Positions 2,823-9,561 of a stretch of DNA of 9,561 nucleotides are shown here, piece by piece (within the stretch, counting starts at the first letter, position 1; the number at the start of each line of letters is the position of its first letter). Source of the DNA: a virus (taxonomy: Duplodnaviria; Heunggongvirae; Uroviricota; Caudoviricetes); IMG/VR virus record IMGVR_UViG_2541047595_000019; one strand, written 5' to 3'. The notes below the pieces were generated by a model. That model searched no databases. It worked only from the letters and a program-made list of their open reading frames with translations, and was not told where the DNA came from. The translations under genes and the position numbers were made by a program.

Positions 2823-3266
2823 ATGCCGATGAGACACCAGGCTGTCATTGAGCAGATCAAGCGGGAGCTAAGGGAACAAATCAAAGAGATTAGAGAGGAT
2901 GCGGCTACGGCGGCGTATGCAATCGGGATGGAAGTAATTGCCAATGCAGCAGTAGAAACGCCACGCGATACAGGGACGCTGATCGGTGGCTATTACGATC
3001 CGCAGGTAAGCCAGGATGATGAAGGTGTGCATTGCACGGTAGGAAACACGGTCCGCTATGCATATTGGGTGCATGAAATGCCGGGGACACTGAAAGGACA
3101 ACCGCGCGAACATTTCGGTAAGACGCGGGAAGGTATCGCATTTGGCGGCGGCACTGGCAGGGGTAACTATTGGGACCCGGACGCCGATCCTAAATTCCTT
3201 GAGCGGGCACTTAACGACCACAAAGCGGAGTATATGGATATAGCGATGAGATATCTTAAGAGGTAA
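2823..3266 (+). CDS. HK97 gp10-like phage virion component (head-tail joining / tail-component family), 147 aa from ATG 2823
   Basis: GAAGGGGG Shine-Dalgarno 4 nt before ATG 2823. Blocks ETPRDTGTLIGG, VGNTVRYAYWVHEMPG and KFLERALNDHK resemble the conserved TG-L, V-YA-YVEFG and PFL-PAL blocks of HK97 gp10-family proteins. This is from memory and is a moderate-confidence family call. Confidence 0.55.
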   Translation: MPMRHQAVIEQIKRELREQIKEIREDAATAAYAIGMEVIANAAVETPRDTGTLIGGYYDPQVSQDDEGVHCTVGNTVRYAYWVHEMPGTLKGQPREHFGKTREGIAFGGGTGRGNYWDPDADPKFLERALNDHKAEYMDIAMRYLKR

Positions 3267-3272
3267 GAAGAG

Positions 3273-5462
3273 ATGAGCGAGCAAGTCGGAAGCCTTCAGA
3301 TAGAGATTGACCTGAAGACAAAAAATTTACTGGTATCACAACGCCATGCTGAAAACGCGCTGGATGATATTGGCAATAAGATTGGCGGCGCAGAGCGACA
3401 AGCAGCAAAACTTAACACGCAGCTAACAAAAACATCGCGCGCTATTAGCGGCAATCTGCGTGCCGGATTCCAGCAGGCTGGATACCAGATTCAGGACTTC
3501 GTGGTGCAGGTCCAGTCAGGACAAAGCGCACTGATAGCGTTGTCACAGCAAGGCAGCCAGTTATTGAGTGCCTTCGGTGGCTGGGGTATTGCACTTGGTG
3601 CGGCGCTTACAGTTGGTGTATCGCTGTTTAAAGCCCTGACAGGTGAAACCGAGGAGACAACAGACAAGACCGAAGTATTTGAAAAGGCTTGCAGTAATTT
3701 ACGCCAGGTAATGGCCCTGAACGAGCAAGGCGTAAACGTCCTGTCAAACGAATACGCCAACCTCGCGAAACAGTCAGCCGAGGCCGCTGCGATGGTCGAA
3801 CGACATTTAACACTGAAACTACGCGAAGCCAAATCAGCGATGAGTGTCTATATCACCAATACACTGGACGCCCAAAACGCGACTGCGGGTTTTGGGATGA
3901 TTGGATCTGACAGTTTACTCGACATGATGCAGGCGATGCGTGCGCTGGGCGTTGAAACGTATGATTACGCCGACGCAATGGACCAGTTGAACGACATGGG
4001 CCTACGTGGTGCGCAGATCCATAAAGAGCTAAACCGCGAACTTGATGATATGGCAGATAAAACTGGCGTATCAAAAGAAGCGCTCTTTGATATGTGCCAG
4101 GAATTAATGGCGGTCGCTAAAGCGCCGACAGCGGACAGCATTTCAGCACTATCAAACCGCATTGCCAGCATGAACCCTACGACAGCGGAAGGTGTTGGCC
4201 TGTTTAATGAACTACAGCAGGCATTGATTAAAGCCGCTATTGAGCTTCAACAGTTCGGGGATATTAGCGAAGATACCGCCAATAAACTTGATGTATTAAA
4301 TCACGCGGCGGATTCTCAATGGGTGAAAGACTTTACAGAAAACATAAAGATGCAAACAAAGGCATTGGGAGCTTCACGCGGCGAAATCATGCGGTTACAG
4401 CTTGAGAATAAGAACCTTACAGTAGAAGAACGCGCCAATGCTGAACAGGCAATCAAGAATTACGAAGATAAACAAAATCGACTTGAACAAGAGAAAGAAG
4501 CGAAACGCCAGGCACTGGCAGCAGAACGCGCCGCCACCGCAGAACGCAAACGCCTGATGCGTGAAGAAGAGCAGGAGCGGAAACGCATTGAGCGTGAGAA
4601 AGAACAGCGCGAGCGCCAGACAAAACAAGCGAAACGCTTCACTGACCAGATCGAAACCAACTATCTGACAACCGTCAATCCGGCGACAGGTCAGGCAGAA
4701 AATCCGCTGGCAGCAATTCAGGCGCAACAGCAACGTGAATTCGAAATGCTGGAAATGTATCGCCAGCAGAATTTAGTCAGTGAGCAGCAATACCGTAACG
4801 CCCTGGAAAACATTATTAACACGTCAGCCATGCGCGTAGCAGCCATCGAGCAACAACAGGCGAGCGAATACAGTAAGAACATTCAGGGATTGATGAGCGC
4901 ATATAGCGGCATGTTTGGCGAGCTTGCTGGCGTTATTTCTGATGGTGCGGGCGAGCAGAGTGCAGCATATCGTGCGATGTTTGCAGTACAGAAAGGTTTT
5001 GCAATGGCATCCGCAGCATTGAGCCTTCAGGAGTCACTAGCGAAGGCTAACTCGCTCCCATTCCCGGCTAATATTCCGGCCTATGCGCAAGCATTAACAG
5101 CAGGTACGCAGATCATTTCAGCCATTCGCGGCATAGCTTTTGGTGGCGGTCGCTACAACGGAGGGGTGGTTGATTCGGGTAAATTCTATCGTGTCGGTGA
5201 GTCCAACAAGCCTGAGCTGTTTCAATCCGGTGGGCGACAGTACATGATTCCTGGTGAGGGCGGCAGGATTATCCCCAACCGCGATATTGGTGGCAGTGGT
5301 GGCGGCATCACACTGAACGTAACAAACAACATCCAGGCGACAAACGGCTGGACTGAAGACGACTCAAAAGCGTTGCAACAGACTATAGAAAACACAGCAA
5401 TGCGCCTGATGCAGCGCGAGTCGCAAAGACCTGGAGGCATGTTACAACCACGGCGGCGTTAA
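3273..5462 (+). CDS. Phage tail tape measure protein, lambda gpH-like, 729 aa
   Basis: AAGAGG Shine-Dalgarno before ATG 3273. The N-terminus (MSEQVGSLQIEIDL ... QVQSGQSALIALSQQGSQLLSAFGGWGIALGAAL) parallels lambda gpH (MAEPVGDLVVDL ... QLAGGQSPWLILLQQGGQVKDSFGG). The C-terminus is glycine-rich (AFGGGRYNGGVVDSGKFYRVGESNKPELF ... GGSGGG) like the lambda tape measure C-terminal domain. The centre is a long helical, highly charged ruler-like region. Confidence 0.85.
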   Translation: MSEQVGSLQIEIDLKTKNLLVSQRHAENALDDIGNKIGGAERQAAKLNTQLTKTSRAISGNLRAGFQQAGYQIQDFVVQVQSGQSALIALSQQGSQLLSAFGGWGIALGAALTVGVSLFKALTGETEETTDKTEVFEKACSNLRQVMALNEQGVNVLSNEYANLAKQSAEAAAMVERHLTLKLREAKSAMSVYITNTLDAQNATAGFGMIGSDSLLDMMQAMRALGVETYDYADAMDQLNDMGLRGAQIHKELNRELDDMADKTGVSKEALFDMCQELMAVAKAPTADSISALSNRIASMNPTTAEGVGLFNELQQALIKAAIELQQFGDISEDTANKLDVLNHAADSQWVKDFTENIKMQTKALGASRGEIMRLQLENKNLTVEERANAEQAIKNYEDKQNRLEQEKEAKRQALAAERAATAERKRLMREEEQERKRIEREKEQRERQTKQAKRFTDQIETNYLTTVNPATGQAENPLAAIQAQQQREFEMLEMYRQQNLVSEQQYRNALENIINTSAMRVAAIEQQQASEYSKNIQGLMSAYSGMFGELAGVISDGAGEQSAAYRAMFAVQKGFAMASAALSLQESLAKANSLPFPANIPAYAQALTAGTQIISAIRGIAFGGGRYNGGVVDSGKFYRVGESNKPELFQSGGRQYMIPGEGGRIIPNRDIGGSGGGITLNVTNNIQATNGWTEDDSKALQQTIENTAMRLMQRESQRPGGMLQPRRR

Positions 5463-5466
5463 CCAA

Positions 5467-5631
5467 ATCCCACGCCAGGGGGATAGACTGGCGGACCCTT
5501 CCCGGTTCTATGCGAAAAATCCCTCACAATTACCCTGCTAATTTGCCAGATTTCACGTACACACGCCAAACAAAAGCCCAGGCAGTTAGCAACCTACCCA
5601 GGCCTTTCTCACAATCCCCGCCGATATTATA
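5467..5631. repeat. Direct repeat copy A (~165 bp), immediately after the tape measure stop codon
   Basis: Near-identical to 8341-8551. The core ATAGACTGGCGGACCCTTCCCG...GAAAAATCCCTCACAATTACCCTGC.AATTTGCCAGATTTCACGTACAC.CGCC ... AGTTAGCAACCTACCCAGGCCTTTCTCACAATC.CCCGCCGATATTATA matches with a handful of substitutions, offset exactly 2880 bp. Confidence 0.85.
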
Positions 5632-5672
5632 ACCGCCATTCCCTGGTTTTATCATTTGTTGCCCAGCCTGCC

Positions 5673-5809: not shown

Positions 5810-5998
5810 ATGAAACACGATAGAGCGGAAATTATCTTCGATATGGTGCGTGAAAGAGTGTGCGCTATGGATACTAAGATTGCACTGATAAGAGCGGGCG
5901 TGCCAGCAACTGCACAAGAACTACTGGTACTAATAGAAAGGCGTGAATACGAGCTAAGCAAAGCCAAAAGAGCATTTGCATTAATATACGCAAAATAA
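5810..5998 (+). CDS. Hypothetical small protein, 62 aa
   Basis: ATG 5810 preceded by GAGGTGAAATC. By eye it uses codons that are rare in enterobacteria (AGA, ATA, CTA), suggesting foreign origin. No family recognised. Confidence 0.55.
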   Translation: MKHDRAEIIFDMVRERVCAMDTKIALIRAGVPATAQELLVLIERREYELSKAKRAFALIYAK

Positions 5999-6017
5999 AC
6001 ACACGGGAGATTAAACA

Positions 6018-6248
6018 ATGGATAAAAATGAAGTAATCCTTCTTAGCCGCCCTGCCATTTGCCGGATGCTGGGCGGAATTAGCAGAGGCACGTTTTATTC
6101 GTGGCGTAAGAAATGGGAACAGAACGGAACTCCATTCCCCGACCCTGTTGATGTGCTGGGTACAGGGCGGGGTGTCATGTATCGCTATCAGGATGTGATG
6201 AAGTTCTTTAAATCGATTGGACTACTTTCTGACAGCGATAACCAGTAA
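6018..6248 (+). CDS. Third AlpA/excisionase-like HTH protein, 76 aa
   Basis: GGGAG Shine-Dalgarno 8 nt before ATG 6018. Translation LLSRPAICRMLGGISRGTFYSWRKK ... FPDPVDVLGTGRGVMYRYQDVMKFF fits the AlpA/Xis HTH-wing pattern. Confidence 0.6.
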   Translation: MDKNEVILLSRPAICRMLGGISRGTFYSWRKKWEQNGTPFPDPVDVLGTGRGVMYRYQDVMKFFKSIGLLSDSDNQ

Positions 6249-6265
6249 TCATCTAACTTGCTAAT

Positions 6266-6288
6266 ACCCGGCCCCGCGCCGGGTTTTT
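6266..6288 (+). terminator. Rho-independent terminator (CCCGGC-CCCGC-GCCGGG followed by TTTTT)
   Basis: 6-bp GC stem, 5-nt loop and a T5 run, 18 nt after the stop at 6246-6248. The 22-nt core is identical to 7861-7882. Confidence 0.7.
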
Positions 6289-6384
6289 GATCCCTGTCAA
6301 CTTCCCCATCAAAGCGGCTACCATCACCCGCTTTTTGTTGATAAATTAGAAAGCAAAACGTTTAGCGACAAAATGAGGTAATGT

Positions 6385-7068
6385 ATGGAATACATGGATT
6401 GGGTTGAGTTAGGCATGAACAAGCGCGCTCGCAAGATGACGCGGCAAGATGTCGCTGAGGCAATGGGCTTCAAAGGCAAAGGCGCTGCTAGCCACAAGTT
6501 TAAAGGGCGTCGCGATACAACAAACAAGACCGCTGATGATGTGTTTAAAATGCTCGCCGCAGTCGGTTGGCAAGCTGTCATCTTCGATAGCAACGGGAAG
6601 ATCGTAATGGGTACGGCACACGTTGATAGCCCGGACGGCATGGAACAAAAATTTATCAAGCGTTGCGAAGAACTAGCCAGAGAAAACGAGGCGCTAAAGG
6701 CTGAGATTGATATGTTGAAAAACCAGCTAAACAACAAAATCGATATTGTAGACAAACCAGTTAATCAACAAATCGAGACCAAGGGCGACGCTATTGTAGG
6801 AGAACCAGCTAAACAACAAAAAGCGGCGGGCGGACGTCCGGCAAAATTCAAAGTAGAACAGCTTGAGCAATGGCTTAAGGAGCAAGGCGGATACAAGGGG
6901 ACTATCGACGATTTGGCGTTATATGCGTTCGGTAAGATCGGCAAAGATGGCAAGCTGCATGGCGCACCAGGCCGCCACTGGATGTACAAGGCGTTAGCTA
7001 AACTGGAGGACGAGGGGAAAATTGCCAAAGAGGCAGCGACAAGGAGCGGGATTAATATTGTTGCTTAA
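6385..7068 (+). CDS. Putative DNA-binding regulator, 227 aa (HTH-like N-terminus, central coiled coil, basic C-terminal domain)
   Basis: TGAGGT Shine-Dalgarno 6 nt before ATG 6385. The N-terminus MTRQDVAEAMGFKG...DDVFKML looks like a Cro/CI-type HTH. EELARENEALKAEIDMLKNQL is a heptad-like coiled coil. Family not confidently recognised. Confidence 0.65.
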   Translation: MEYMDWVELGMNKRARKMTRQDVAEAMGFKGKGAASHKFKGRRDTTNKTADDVFKMLAAVGWQAVIFDSNGKIVMGTAHVDSPDGMEQKFIKRCEELARENEALKAEIDMLKNQLNNKIDIVDKPVNQQIETKGDAIVGEPAKQQKAAGGRPAKFKVEQLEQWLKEQGGYKGTIDDLALYAFGKIGKDGKLHGAPGRHWMYKALAKLEDEGKIAKEAATRSGINIVA

Positions 7069-7112
7069 CCCTTAAAGCCAACGATTAGCTACAAAACCAG
7101 CCATCAAGCGAA

Positions 7113-7138
7113 GCCCAGCCATAGCGCTGGGTTTTTTT
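7113..7138 (+). terminator. Rho-independent terminator (CCCAGC-CATAGC-GCTGGG followed by TTTTTTT)
   Basis: GC stem plus a T7 run, about 45 nt after the stop at 7066-7068. Confidence 0.65.
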
Positions 7139-7177
7139 ATTGATATTCACAAGGCATTGTCGCGTCACAAAACAAAT

Positions 7178-7191
7178 TTGATACATATCAA
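7178..7191. promoter_or_regulatory. Operator-like perfect palindrome TTGATA-CA-TATCAA
   Basis: 6-bp inverted arms with a 2-bp centre, the same 6-2-6 architecture as the 5673-5686 palindrome. It lies in the intergenic region upstream of the 7303 gene. Confidence 0.3.
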
Positions 7192-7302
7192 TGATATTAA
7201 CGCAGCGTTTTGATAACCATTCAGTTAAGAATCGCAACAACTAAAGGAGGTGATAAAGGCTGGCGAGCCGTTGCCCTATGGCAGCAAAACGGGAGCAACA
7301 AC

Positions 7303-7854
7303 ATGTTTGACTTGGTACAGGTTGATAGCGAGTGGCGCATTAGTAGTCTTGAGTTGTTGGACTTGGTTAATCAGATTCGTGTGGCTGAAGGTCTTAACAA
7401 ACTGCCGCCGAACAGATTCAACAAGAAAATTAAAGACGAGCTTGAAGGTGAAAGTCTCTACTGGCATAAAATGCGCATTAATATAAATCAACAACTTACA
7501 AAAGAAGTTGAGATTTGTGAACTCACTGGAGACCAGGCTTTAAGAGTGGGGATGCGCGAATTTAAGCGTGTCAGGGCAAAAGTAGTAGAACGAATCAACC
7601 AATTGCGATTGGAGGTATCGCAGTACAAACTGATTCAACAATGCGCAGACAAGGCAGATCAGGCGGTAGCGTTAGCCAACGAAGGCAAGTTAAACGAAGT
7701 AGCGGATCTCATTGTGATAGCGAAACGCGAGTATCTACCGCTATCAAGCGCGGCAGGTAAAACGCTAAATAGGTGTAGACCGACGAAACGCAAACTGAAC
7801 CAGTCGGAAAACTATATTGGTAGTCTTCTTCAAATCGACTTGTTCCCTGAGTGA
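7303..7854 (+). CDS. Hypothetical protein, 183 aa from ATG 7303; possible phage regulatory (Rha/antirepressor-like) protein
   Basis: GGGAG Shine-Dalgarno 7 nt before ATG 7303. The track's 7210 start is TTG with no Shine-Dalgarno. The N-terminal WRISSLELLDLVNQIRVAEGLNKL is reminiscent of Rha-type phage regulators, but the match is weak. Confidence 0.55.
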   Translation: MFDLVQVDSEWRISSLELLDLVNQIRVAEGLNKLPPNRFNKKIKDELEGESLYWHKMRININQQLTKEVEICELTGDQALRVGMREFKRVRAKVVERINQLRLEVSQYKLIQQCADKADQAVALANEGKLNEVADLIVIAKREYLPLSSAAGKTLNRCRPTKRKLNQSENYIGSLLQIDLFPE

Positions 7855-7860
7855 TAGTTC

Positions 7861-7882
7861 ACCCGGCCCCGCGCCGGGTTTT
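7861..7882 (+). terminator. Rho-independent terminator, identical core to 6266-6287 (ACCCGGCCCCGCGCCGGGTTTT)
   Basis: Same stem-loop followed by TTTT, 7 nt after the stop at 7852-7854. Confidence 0.7.
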
Positions 7883-8100
7883 AATGCCATCATTATTAAA
7901 TCTATTAATGCTCATTAAACCATAATTAGCATAACTTATAATCGAACAAAAATCACACAAATCAGATAATGATTTTTTCTGGTTATACTTATCTAAAAAA
8001 GTGGTATAGGATGTAACTTATTATTTTGTAAGGGCAAATTTATTGCGTGGCCAGATGAACAGGCTTGCGCACCTCCCGAAAAACACGCGAAAATCTAAGT

Positions 8101-8210
8101 GTTCTTTCTTTTTTTGTTTTTATTTTTTCATTTTCTCTTTCTTCTCTTTTCCGGTTTCTCTTCTTTCTGGTTTTGGTTTTTTCCTTTTTATTTTTATTCT
8201 TTCTTACCGT
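8101..8210. repeat. Low-complexity polypyrimidine (T/C) tract, ~110 nt
   Basis: By manual count about 96 of 110 bases are T or C, with roughly 5 A and 9 G. There is no regular periodicity. It sits in an AT-rich non-coding spacer (7883-8340). Confidence 0.8.
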
Positions 8211-8340
8211 TGGGGTAAAAACACCAAAACATTTTCGCCACAAAAGCATTAATTTCATCCTGCCAGACCAATCATTTTCACCGGATACACAGCCGGATAT
8301 AATCTCACTAACACCACACCACCCCGCACCACACCTGATA

Positions 8341-8551
8341 AATCCCGTATTCAGGAAGGGGAATAGACTGGCGGACCCTTCCCGCTTCTACATGAAAAAT
8401 CCCTCACAATTACCCTGCCAATTTGCCAGATTTCACGTACACGCGCCTATATCCCCGCTACCGGATACGCGCCGCTTATACCGGATAAACAAAGGCCCAG
8501 GTAGTTAGCAACCTACCCAGGCCTTTCTCACAATCACCCGCCGATATTATA
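8341..8551. repeat. Direct repeat copy B (~210 bp), carrying a 39-bp insertion (8448-8486) relative to copy A
   Basis: Aligns with 5467-5631. The insertion TATATCCCCGCTACCGGATACGCGCCGCTTATACCGGAT contains two CCGGATA motifs. Confidence 0.85.
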
Positions 8552-8670
8552 TCACCCACCCTGCCGTTTTCAGGCGGGAGGTGAATAGCCGTCACTTGTT
8601 GCATAATTGATTAATTTCCGACCAATTAAATTAACTCCCACCAATACACGCTAGATGGGAGGTGGATTTT

Positions 8671-8765: not shown

Positions 8766-8828
8766 ATGAAGCGGTGGGAAGTGATTTTACTGATGGTGAT
8801 GATGTTTGTTATGTGCGTGGAGTATTAA
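8766..8828 (+). CDS. Mini-ORF encoding a 20-aa hydrophobic peptide (MKRWEVILLMVMMFVMCVEY)
   Basis: GGGAGGTG Shine-Dalgarno 5 nt before ATG 8766. The stop at 8826-8828 overlaps the Shine-Dalgarno of the next gene. Composition resembles small membrane toxin or leader peptides. Confidence 0.3.
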   Translation: MKRWEVILLMVMMFVMCVEY

Positions 8829-8839
8829 GGGGGGCAATT

Positions 8840-9019
8840 ATGGAACGCTTTATCAATAAACTACTGATTGTTGTTATCGCAATAGCGATCTTCGTATGGG
8901 TGGGCGTGCTGTTTAGCCAGTTTCCTGATGCTATGCGGTTAATTCAGATCGAGGGACAACGCGCTTTTATCCCTGGCTGGCGCGTGATTTACGAATTAAT
9001 CCGCTGGTTTGCAGCTTGA
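8840..9019 (+). CDS. Small membrane protein, 59 aa, one predicted transmembrane helix
   Basis: TAAGGGGGGCA Shine-Dalgarno context before ATG 8840 (the track starts at an upstream GTG). The hydrophobic helix is LLIVVIAIAIFVWVGVLF. Confidence 0.5.
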   Translation: MERFINKLLIVVIAIAIFVWVGVLFSQFPDAMRLIQIEGQRAFIPGWRVIYELIRWFAA

Positions 9020-9033
9020 ATAAGGGGGGCACT

Positions 9034-9561
9034 ATGAACAGAGAAAAGACATTCCCGGAAATGCTGGAAGAGGCAGCGATTAACAGCCTGGCTATTGCAG
9101 ACACTAAGGAATTAATGACGTTCACCAAGCGCCAGATAACCGCAATTATGCAGATGCCGAGTATTAGCGAGGAACCTGCGACGGCACACGCTATGGCTAT
9201 CCATACGCTCACAATGGCGACTTACCTTTGGTTGTATAGCGACTTCGGGTTGCAGCCAGTCGATGCAGACGATCGCGAGTTATTCGCTGTGGATGTTGAC
9301 GACGTACACGCCGTACTGATGCCGCTAAATGTTCTGGTTGGCTGGATTTACCACAATAGCGTCGAGGCGGTTTGCAGGGCGAAAGCGGGAAATCCTGGTG
9401 GAACTGACTGGCGGTTACTGTTCCGGCAAATGACTTTAGAGCAGTTCATCGACGACAAATATGGACTATCACACGACATTGCTGATGCTCTTTACGAAGC
9501 AATGAAAGAAGGCGCAACAGCCGCGCTAAATGGCAACCTGGCAGCACCGACTATTCACTGA
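9034..9561 (+). CDS. Hypothetical protein, 175 aa
   Basis: ATG 9034 preceded by the same TAAGGGGGGCA context 5 nt upstream. The ORF ends with TGA at the window edge. No family recognised. Confidence 0.6.
   Translation: MNREKTFPEMLEEAAINSLAIADTKELMTFTKRQITAIMQMPSISEEPATAHAMAIHTLTMATYLWLYSDFGLQPVDADDRELFAVDVDDVHAVLMPLNVLVGWIYHNSVEAVCRAKAGNPGGTDWRLLFRQMTLEQFIDDKYGLSHDIADALYEAMKEGATAALNGNLAAPTIH

Follow-up and report, generated by a model that had tools for sequence, protein, structure and literature searches.

Phage satellites were long assumed to use phage tails unchanged. The recognition of satellites with a tape measure protein (TMP) of their own is recent, with the Vibrio PLEs shown in 2025 and mycobacterial EPIPs reported. 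The PLEs of Vibrio cholerae encode a TMP that is selectively incorporated and leads to chimeric tails (PMC11838301); mycobacterial EPIPs carry a predicted TMP, and reportedly so do some capsid-forming phage-inducible chromosomal islands (cf-PICIs). Here we analyze a DNA stretch of 9,561 nucleotides, in the following called the window, from the IMG/VR record IMGVR_UViG_2541047595_000019 (Caudoviricetes). Its plus strand, which carries every sizeable open reading frame (ORF) of the window according to the ORF listing, contains the gene of a tail completion protein (TCP, 2823-3266) followed by a TMP gene (3273-5462), as part of an integrase island related to the cryptic prophage CPZ-55 of Escherichia coli K-12. 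With a probability of roughly 0.55 we regard the island as a PICI-like satellite whose helpers are mEp021/ES18-like siphoviruses and which gives rise to chimeric tails; that it depends on a helper and that its proteins enter particles is what we infer from its genes.

The island resembles the PLEs in being small and integrative, in missing most structural genes, in having its own TMP gene beside another tail-interior gene, and in that its TMPs fall into sequence groups. Just as the TMP of the PLEs is distinct from that of the helper, the island TMP aligns with the TMPs of candidate helpers at its ends only. There are also clear differences. The PLE TMP replaces that of the helper in the particles, as found by western blot and mass spectrometry, whereas the island is known from genes alone. 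The helper of the PLEs is the lytic myovirus ICP1, whereas the candidate helper of the island is a temperate siphovirus. The PLE TMP is partnered by a tail assembly chaperone, in some cases also by a baseplate hub, and the island TMP by a TCP; and where the PLE TMP falls clearly short of its helper's TMP in length, the island TMP is near helper length.

Gram-negative PICIs (e.g. EcCI) and the island family are alike in several respects: they measure 10-12 kb, use dedicated attachment (att) sites, place alpA behind a site-specific tyrosine integrase and in its orientation, and encode a small terminase in several members. In contrast to the PICIs, no primase/replicase module was found in the island, and it carries TCP and TMP while classic PICIs are by definition free of virion structural genes. 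The cf-PICIs and the EPIPs are satellites with some virion genes as well, but both carry capsid, scaffold or connector genes where the island has the tail-interior pair only. With CPZ-55 (intZ, yffL-yffS) the island family has in common the att site, the integrase family, o110/YffM, small terminase of siblings/YffO (54%), protein upstream of the TCP/YffP, and the intergenic region that follows the TMP gene; CPZ-55, however, lacks TCP and TMP and is treated in the literature searched as a grounded prophage only, and nothing was found there on TMP-bearing relatives. The late operon of mEp021/ES18-like phages (L047, L048; mEp010, mEp013, mEp021) has HNH_3, small terminase, TCP and TMP in the same order, the type B N-terminus of island TMPs being 51-69% identical to theirs, but these phages have TMPs of 737-971 residues and also possess large terminase, portal, capsid, terminator, tube, DUF6246 chaperone and M/L/K/I/J tip genes, of which the island has none. 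The island is set apart from the described systems by the siphovirus class of its candidate helper, the TCP partner, the absence of other structural genes and its kinship with K-12 CPZ-55.

If the satellite reading is correct, the manipulation of tails by satellites extends to E. coli, the best-studied host, a satellite TMP is paired with a tail completion protein and not with a chaperone or hub, and the K-12 'cryptic prophage' has to be reinterpreted. The system is also a tractable one, with a family member in strain ATCC 8739 (L046) and, already in hand, phages of the mEp series able to grow on K-12, and it offers a natural experiment on the specificity between TCP and TMP and on their contribution to DNA entry.

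Tape measure protein and tail completion protein

By its profile matches the product of positions 3273-5462 is a full-length tape measure protein. Its 729 residues match the PHROG family 'tail length tape measure protein' (phrog_1538) with an E-value of 1.3e-96, residues 1-723 covering positions 1-805 of the 811 in the profile, and the solved tape measure PDB 9occ_M matches residues 29-695 (E 1e-16). The original prediction, made from the DNA letters, had placed a tape measure ORF of 729 residues at these coordinates, which are right, and had described its N- and C-terminal blocks as similar to lambda gpH. The latter applies to the N-terminus only, where lambda H is 28% identical across the first 103-113 residues (pairwise E 2e-5); the C-terminal block has no significant pairwise similarity to lambda H and instead resembles the TMPs of mEp021/ES18-like phages. 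The Pfam model TMP_2 likewise reaches the N-terminus only and stays below its threshold (24.4 versus 30.2). Lambda was rejected as a reference, given that the H match is weak and N-terminal only and that the TCP gives no match to lambda Z.

The conservation of the TMP is concentrated at its two ends. Compared to TMPs of the candidate helper type, the first 58 residues are 34% identical and the last approximately 150 residues 47%, and the middle region is 21-25% identical to the TMPs of prophages. The C-terminal 130 residues (5070-5459) form a conserved module with 63-88% identity between the window and 14 sibling islands and 54-57% identity to the prophage TMPs of L047 and L048; this module may bind the tail tip. 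Residues 1-46 (3273-3410) represent the N-terminus designated type A below and probably the segment that binds the TCP. Between both ends, residues 96-124 (3558-3644) are the sole strongly hydrophobic segment, with Kyte-Doolittle averages above 1.2 in windows of 19 residues occurring nowhere else, and a central stretch (residues 391-470) is highly charged.

The product of positions 2823-3266 (147 residues) is a tail completion protein of the HK97 gp10 / lambda Z / SPP1 gp16.1 / 80alpha gp51 class. It shows the fold elements of 80alpha gp51, namely a long bent N-terminal helix, a loop containing a beta-hairpin, plus a C-terminal helix. Its profile scores are below the cut-offs for Pfam PF04883 (16.9 bits, cut-off 21.4) and NCBIfam TIGR01725 (14.8, cut-off 30.8), a precomputed PF04883 match exists for nine out of 105 clusters of its homologues, and close homologues are named 'HK97 gp10 family' by NCBI. 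The gp10-like partner originally noticed was therefore assigned to the right class, but it is more than a generic neighbour: tail completion proteins bind TMP N-termini, and its presence tracks the type of the TMP N-terminus. The translational coupling of both genes was also seen correctly, as a tight but non-overlapping arrangement. The ATG start codon of the TCP is preceded by the ribosome-binding site AAGGGGG, its stop codon TAA is located at 3264-3266, and the ATG of the TMP follows at 3273, 6 nt beyond the TCP ORF, with its own AAGAGG site within the last TCP codons.

The surroundings of the TMP gene are atypical, with the TCP gene upstream and an intergenic region followed by regulatory-type genes downstream, where chaperone and distal tail genes would be the usual neighbours. 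The TCP gene is not just upstream of terminator and tube genes either, which is the position of its 44-48% identical homologues in L047, L048, L049 and L060.

Among the island TMPs, two versions of the first approximately 45 residues exist. The window, L002, L004, L005 and L058, which are exactly the five islands with a TCP gene of their own, have type A (MSEQVGSLQIEIDLKTKNLL...), and nine islands which all lack this gene have type B (MSGNLGTIYYEVDARTGKLL...). Type A thus occurs in 5/5 TCP-bearing and 0/9 TCP-less islands, an outcome expected once in 2,002 if the islands were independent, which overstates the case for elements related by descent and recombination. The association holds across shuffled middle regions, type A being combined with mid1 or mid2 and type B with mid2, mid3 or mid4. 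In L004 and L046, for instance, the middles are 91% identical and the type of the N-terminus switches at about residue 46. Type B, with L001 as an example, is 56-69% identical to the N-termini of prophage TMPs over 45 residues, and the type A N-terminus of the window is 42% identical to that of L048.

This pattern can be understood from the tail structure of 80alpha/SaPI1, in which a single TCP forms a bundle with residues 1-37 from three copies of the TMP and caps the end of the DNA (PMC11661146). Since the TCP bundles TMP N-termini, an island would need its own TCP only where its TMP N-terminus no longer fits the TCP of the helper. In the same structure there is minimal contact between interior proteins and exterior rings, and the tip is bound by the C-termini of the TMP (PMC11661146); an island could therefore swap the interior cartridge and use the exterior of the helper. 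For SPP1 the TCP was reported to be required for routing the DNA into the cytoplasm (PMC11099176).

Both genes are under purifying selection, as judged from substitution rates. For the TMP dN/dS is 0.10 at a dS of 0.87-1.09 (window compared to L005, L004 compared to L046), and for the TCP it is 0.17-0.33 between diverged island copies. The length of the TMP is 726-734 residues in 13 out of 15 islands including the window, the exceptions being one protein of 788 residues and a variant of 495 residues, although the middle regions belong to at least four types whose mutual identity is just 18-34%; in related phages the TMP has between 669 and 971 residues. Modules are exchanged as well. The left arm of the window is 95-99% identical to L001 from the ychJ site and its TCP and TMP proteins are 81-93% identical to those of L002 from the eut site, which points to a recent exchange between islands. 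Within the TMP, residues 131-560 are near-identical to L002 (dS 0.03) and residues 561-729 are not (dS 0.73), so that the latter part has, by this measure, recombined relative to L002.

Three observations on the cassette in sibling islands may be added. The TCP-less islands contain, directly upstream of the TMP gene, a non-coding spacer of 290 nt which is conserved (88-96%) and AT-rich (36-41% GC), located at 9095-9382 in L046 and 10815-11103 in L001 with equivalents in L052, L054 and L056. This spacer may be a separate promoter or regulatory region; a decayed TCP gene was considered and rejected, as it has no similarity to the TCP gene. L057 carries the TMP-like gene of 495 residues (3334-4821), with an unrelated N-terminus, the conserved C-terminal module and a preceding gene for a 134-residue protein, and this gene may be a deletion variant. 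Finally, a cyclophilin-type peptidyl-prolyl isomerase (PF00160) is encoded two genes upstream of the TCP-TMP pair in L058 and L059 (8962-9453). It caught our attention since the HK97 tape measure reportedly needs a periplasmic chaperone for genome injection, a finding ascribed to Cumby et al. 2015.

The island family and its candidate helper phages

The relatives of the window are integrase islands of 10-12 kb at two chromosomal sites. Between eutB and eutA (the CPZ-55 site) lie L002, L005, L046 and L050-L059, and at ychJ (rssA/ychJ) lie L001 and L004 with an integrase that differs from that of the eut site. Partial megablast matches to the window occur in 265 of 5,426 complete E. coli genomes, all of them chromosomal; phage and plasmid collections contain no megablast match to it, and GTDB representative genomes yielded only distant TMPs from Pantoea and Lonsdalea. 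The TMP gene is found at the same position in all 14 fetched siblings except K-12 CPZ-55. Complete siblings show a PICI-like layout with a tyrosine integrase on one side, then alpA in the same orientation, and a dedicated att site; chromosomal genes border them on both sides, and no tail, capsid or lysis genes flank them. Canonical tail genes at the flanks had been named in advance as the mark of an ordinary prophage with insertions, and their absence argues for an island. Integrase and att sites were thus recovered where the original prediction suggested to look for them, in the flanks of the siblings, but no primase family was matched in the window.

In searches with hidden Markov models (HMMs) of Pfam, PHROGs and NCBIfam, complemented by a fold comparison for one protein, no ORF of the window matched a tube, chaperone, capsid, or distal-tail/tip family, and this includes the products of 1248-2801, among which a divergent tube or chaperone had been considered. 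DUF6246, any PHROG chaperone family and the baseplate hub were not matched among the window ORFs either, and no capsid, portal, protease or connector genes were detected in the window or its siblings. Complete siblings are likewise free of genes for tube, terminator, chaperone and tail tip. The absence of tail and capsid genes is established at the level of HMMs, plus the fold for one protein, which is short of proof.

CPZ-55 of K-12 MG1655 (L003) looks like a member of this family which lacks the TCP-TMP cassette, judging from its protein matches. YffO and the Sf6-type small terminase of L002 share 54% identity, YffM matches o110, YffL matches a 195-residue protein of L002, and YffP matches the protein encoded upstream of the TCP gene in siblings. 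Neither TCP nor TMP is present, and the conserved post-TMP intergenic region follows directly after yffP.

A comparison with phages points to the potential helper. All TCP homologues with at least 58% identity reside in islands, and those with 49% or less in phages of one architecture, as far as contexts were checked. This architecture consists of HNH_3, Sf6-type small terminase, large terminase, portal, Mu-F, DUF6260 capsid, DUF7370, TCP, terminator, Phage_tail_2 tube, DUF6246, TMP and M/L/K/I/J. The prophages L047, L048 and L060 show the corresponding late-operon order (HNH, TerS, TerL, portal, capsid, TCP, terminator, tube, DUF6246, TMP, M/L/K/I/J), and their TCPs are 44-48% identical to the TCP of the window and their TMP C-termini 51-64% in local alignment. 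The capsid protein of L048 is 86-87% identical to those of mEp010, mEp515, mEp554 and mEp044 and about 65% to that of ES18. The TMP of the L001 island is 50% identical to the mEp013 TMP over its full length, the nearest prophage TMP has 737 residues, and others have 780. The island genes for HNH, small terminase (in siblings), TCP and TMP are homologous to late-operon genes of these phages and keep their order; in its gene content the island looks like an mEp021/ES18-like late operon minus everything else.

We therefore favour the following course of events, in which the island would be a phage satellite of an mEp021/ES18-like helper. During late expression of the helper, a trimer of the island TMP would dock on the tail-tip complex of the helper via the conserved C-terminal module, and chaperone and tube protein of the helper would assemble around it. 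Diverged TMP N-termini (type A, as in the window) would be capped by the island's own TCP, and in type B islands, without a TCP gene, the undiverged N-termini would be capped by the TCP of the helper. A chimeric tail would result, which at about 109 nm compared to 110-117 nm would essentially have the length of a helper tail. TCP and TMP are the first to leave the virion and route the DNA into the cell, and the likely pay-off would therefore be control of DNA delivery or escape from targeting of the helper TMP, and not tail length.

Going further, and with somewhat more doubt than belief, we propose that the CPZ-55-family islands, including the 'cryptic prophage' of K-12, could be a previously unrecognized class of enterobacterial satellites which steal capsid, tube and tip from mEp021/ES18-like siphoviruses and supply the interior cartridge of the tail themselves. 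The all-or-none link between TCP and N-terminus would then be in vivo genetic evidence of allele-specific recognition between TCP and TMP. The swap would serve DNA delivery, for instance by letting the island enter cells in which the resident helper excludes the TMP of its own kind, or immunity to an island-encoded block on the TMP of the helper.

Several points weigh against a satellite with chimeric tails. The candidate helper prophage type is present in 35 of 5,426 genomes and is therefore rarer than the island, and among the matches listed it occurs in none of the island-bearing genomes, which is no evidence either way on co-residence. Where a genome had matches in two places, these proved to be the TCP and the TMP of one prophage. 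The scan of IMG/VR returned phage TMPs (approximately 30% identity) together with a single related contig, short and derived from an isolate genome, but no packaged island. No chaperone is encoded, and the island TMP would have to make use of the DUF6246 protein of the helper despite the low identity in its middle region. No primase or replicase family was matched in the window, and no replication module was recognized there. An Sf6-type small terminase gene, a hallmark of satellites, is present in the siblings L002, L004 and L052 but was not found in the window, which instead has the HNH gene and o72, whose product of 72 residues is weakly connected to the small terminase. The link between TCP and N-terminus type is also less compelling than its counts suggest, as the TCP gene and the 5' end of the TMP gene are adjacent DNA.

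Interference, decay and tail length

An explanation that we regard as unlikely, but which has some documented precedent, is interference with phages without self-transfer. The island TMP, with or without TCP, would then be a dominant-negative decoy in the assembly of mEp021/ES18-like tails, giving non-infectious or tailless particles and protecting the population. Blocks of tail assembly are known from the Tai systems in PICIs (PMC11364771), from Tab and from Rta of PLE11; a competitor for the tail tip would require a C-terminal module such as island and phage TMPs have in common, and the window has no recognized replication or packaging function. A poison, however, has no need of a full-length ruler kept at 726-734 residues across unrelated middles, of purifying selection along its whole length, or of a matching TCP that tracks the N-terminus type. 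The small terminase in siblings also speaks for transfer over mere interference, and no PADLOC defence-system model matches the window. Interference and self-transfer need not be exclusive, by analogy with the PLEs, which do both.

The original prediction had given equal weight to a satellite with its own tape measure and to a decayed prophage; sibling architecture, purifying selection and the small terminase favour the former and disfavour the latter. As a remnant, TCP and TMP would have been left without purpose from an mEp021/ES18-like prophage after deletion of its other structural genes, which we hold to be very improbable. The gene order mirroring the phage late operon is in agreement with decay, as is the cataloguing of K-12 CPZ-55 as a cryptic or 'grounded' prophage, its complete lack of TCP and TMP, and the short TMP-like gene of L057. 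But islands of the same compact build are found at two att sites and with different integrases, and the annotated pseudogenes of siblings are limited to an integrase-adjacent fragment, a partial right-arm ORF of L004 and one gene of L057. Decay is likewise hard to reconcile with a TMP dN/dS of 0.10 at saturating dS, with the conserved TMP length, with modules that are actively reshuffled between islands, and with the finding that the TCP homologues of at least 58% identity are, where contexts were checked, all in islands and not in phages.

Just as improbable is the redirection of tail length that had originally been suggested, in which the shorter ruler of the island would give tails shorter than those of the helper, like the redirection of capsid size: the TMP of PLE11 is indeed 95 residues shorter with tails about 10 nm shorter (PMC11838301), tails of EPIP particles differ in length from those of the helper, and 729 residues are fewer than the 853 of lambda H, but lambda is the wrong comparator, the nearest mEp021/ES18-like prophage TMP predicts a tail of 110.5 nm compared to 109.3 nm at 0.15 nm per residue (117 nm for the 780-residue TMPs), which is a gap of about 1 nm and less than one tube ring, and the island TMP lengths cluster tightly and unshifted.

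Other genes and composite structure of the window

An AlpA-type helix-turn-helix (HTH) regulator and an HNH nuclease had been noticed upstream of the tail pair, and both were verified. The alpA gene (243-443; Pfam Phage_AlpA 28.7 bits, cut-off 21; phrog_66) is the first gene after the integrase, which lies just outside the window: in the alignment with the sibling L001, the base after the integrase stop codon corresponds to window position 1. A second small HTH protein of 79 residues (531-770) has no match in Pfam or PHROG, and its copy in L001 is 98.7% identical and annotated as AlpA family by PGAP. The HNH endonuclease (HNH_3, 757-1152; Pfam 34.9 bits, cut-off 24.8; phrog_7545) is 29% identical to the HNH protein preceding the terminase genes in prophage L048. 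Upstream of alpA, a promoter-like site (79-108) is located between the gene and the terminator hairpin after the integrase (50-74), and it is overlapped by two self-complementary hexamers at 99-114 (TGCGCA-TATT-TGCGCA) which look like an operator.

Four small proteins are encoded between the HNH and TCP genes. The family-specific o111 (1248-1583) has homologues with 27-99% identity in the five siblings examined and no match in Pfam, PHROGs or NCBIfam. The orphan o180 (1601-2143) is confined to Escherichia/Shigella with 27 close homologues only; an exhaustive HMMER search of 1.84 billion representatives returned 17 hits with 27-99% identity, mostly close homologues or fragments, and the single PHROG match is weak (E 0.007). 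It is followed by o110 (2263-2547, start possibly 2215), a three-helix-bundle protein of the YffM family, and by o72 (2583-2801), a small basic helical protein without a family match in Pfam, PHROGs or NCBIfam. The weak likeness of o72 is to the C-terminal part of an L005 protein (33%, E 0.002) which is itself homologous to the small terminase of siblings. A hidden G/GT-type chaperone produced by a -1 frameshift from o110 (2215-2547) into o72 (2583-2801) was considered and rejected; the frames fit, but a slippery heptamer is missing from the overlap 2532-2544 (GGGACGAACGATT), and o72 comes with a ribosome-binding site of its own. No tRNA, tmRNA or Rfam family was found in the window, and the Psu/Sid/Delta and alpha primase-helicase families of P4-like satellites were not matched in it.

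Downstream of the TMP gene, regulatory genes and repeats had been noticed in place of genes of the M/L/K/I/J type. This is confirmed, and the repeat can now be explained. A direct repeat of 165 nt (5477-5640 and 8357-8560) represents the conserved post-TMP intergenic region of the family, which is present twice. The first copy follows the TMP gene, as it does in the five siblings tested, and corresponds to the region after yffP in K-12 CPZ-55; the second contains an insert of 39 nt and starts the right arm of a second island. Between them lies a right-arm module (5810-7854) with o62, HTH76 (6018-6248), o227 (6385-7068) and o214 (7210-7854), followed by an internal copy of an island right end (8264-8358) with the arm motif CACCGGATACAC at 8279 and the att core TCAGGAAG at 8351. 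This copy aligns to the attR ends of L002, L005, L046 and K-12, and the att core agrees with the sequence given for CPZ-55 (PMC6379469). The internal right end is fused directly to the second intergenic copy and then to a right arm of the L002/L005 type with o81 and o181 (8774-9561), which has 98-99% nucleotide identity to L002 13176-13716. Two CPZ-55-type islands, in tandem or nested, are therefore combined in the window. The composite junction occurs in no complete E. coli genome.

Some features of the right arm remain to be mentioned. The protein o214 has a weak match to an anti-repressor family (phrog_1726, E 0.0025); if this match is real, o214 could act on the repressor of the helper by analogy with other satellites. 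The o227 gene contains three 18-mers AACCAGYTAAWCAACAAA at 6721-6738, 6755-6772 and 6803-6820, where 0.01 would be expected by chance, and one or two copies are kept in the o227 homologues of L002, L004, L005, L051 and L055. An initiator gene with an origin inside it, for which these would be the iterons, is one possibility and a mere peptide repeat the other; the site is regarded as a candidate origin only. Identical terminator hairpins of 22 nt (ACCCGGCCCCGCGCCGGGTTTT) are located after HTH76 (6266-6287) and after o214 (7861-7882), with a related third one at 7110-7135. Positions 8040-8260, which lie past the o214 terminator and before the internal right end, form a CT-rich low-complexity stretch of approximately 220 nt with a GC content of 0.36 and a strongly negative GC skew, which is absent from the siblings examined.

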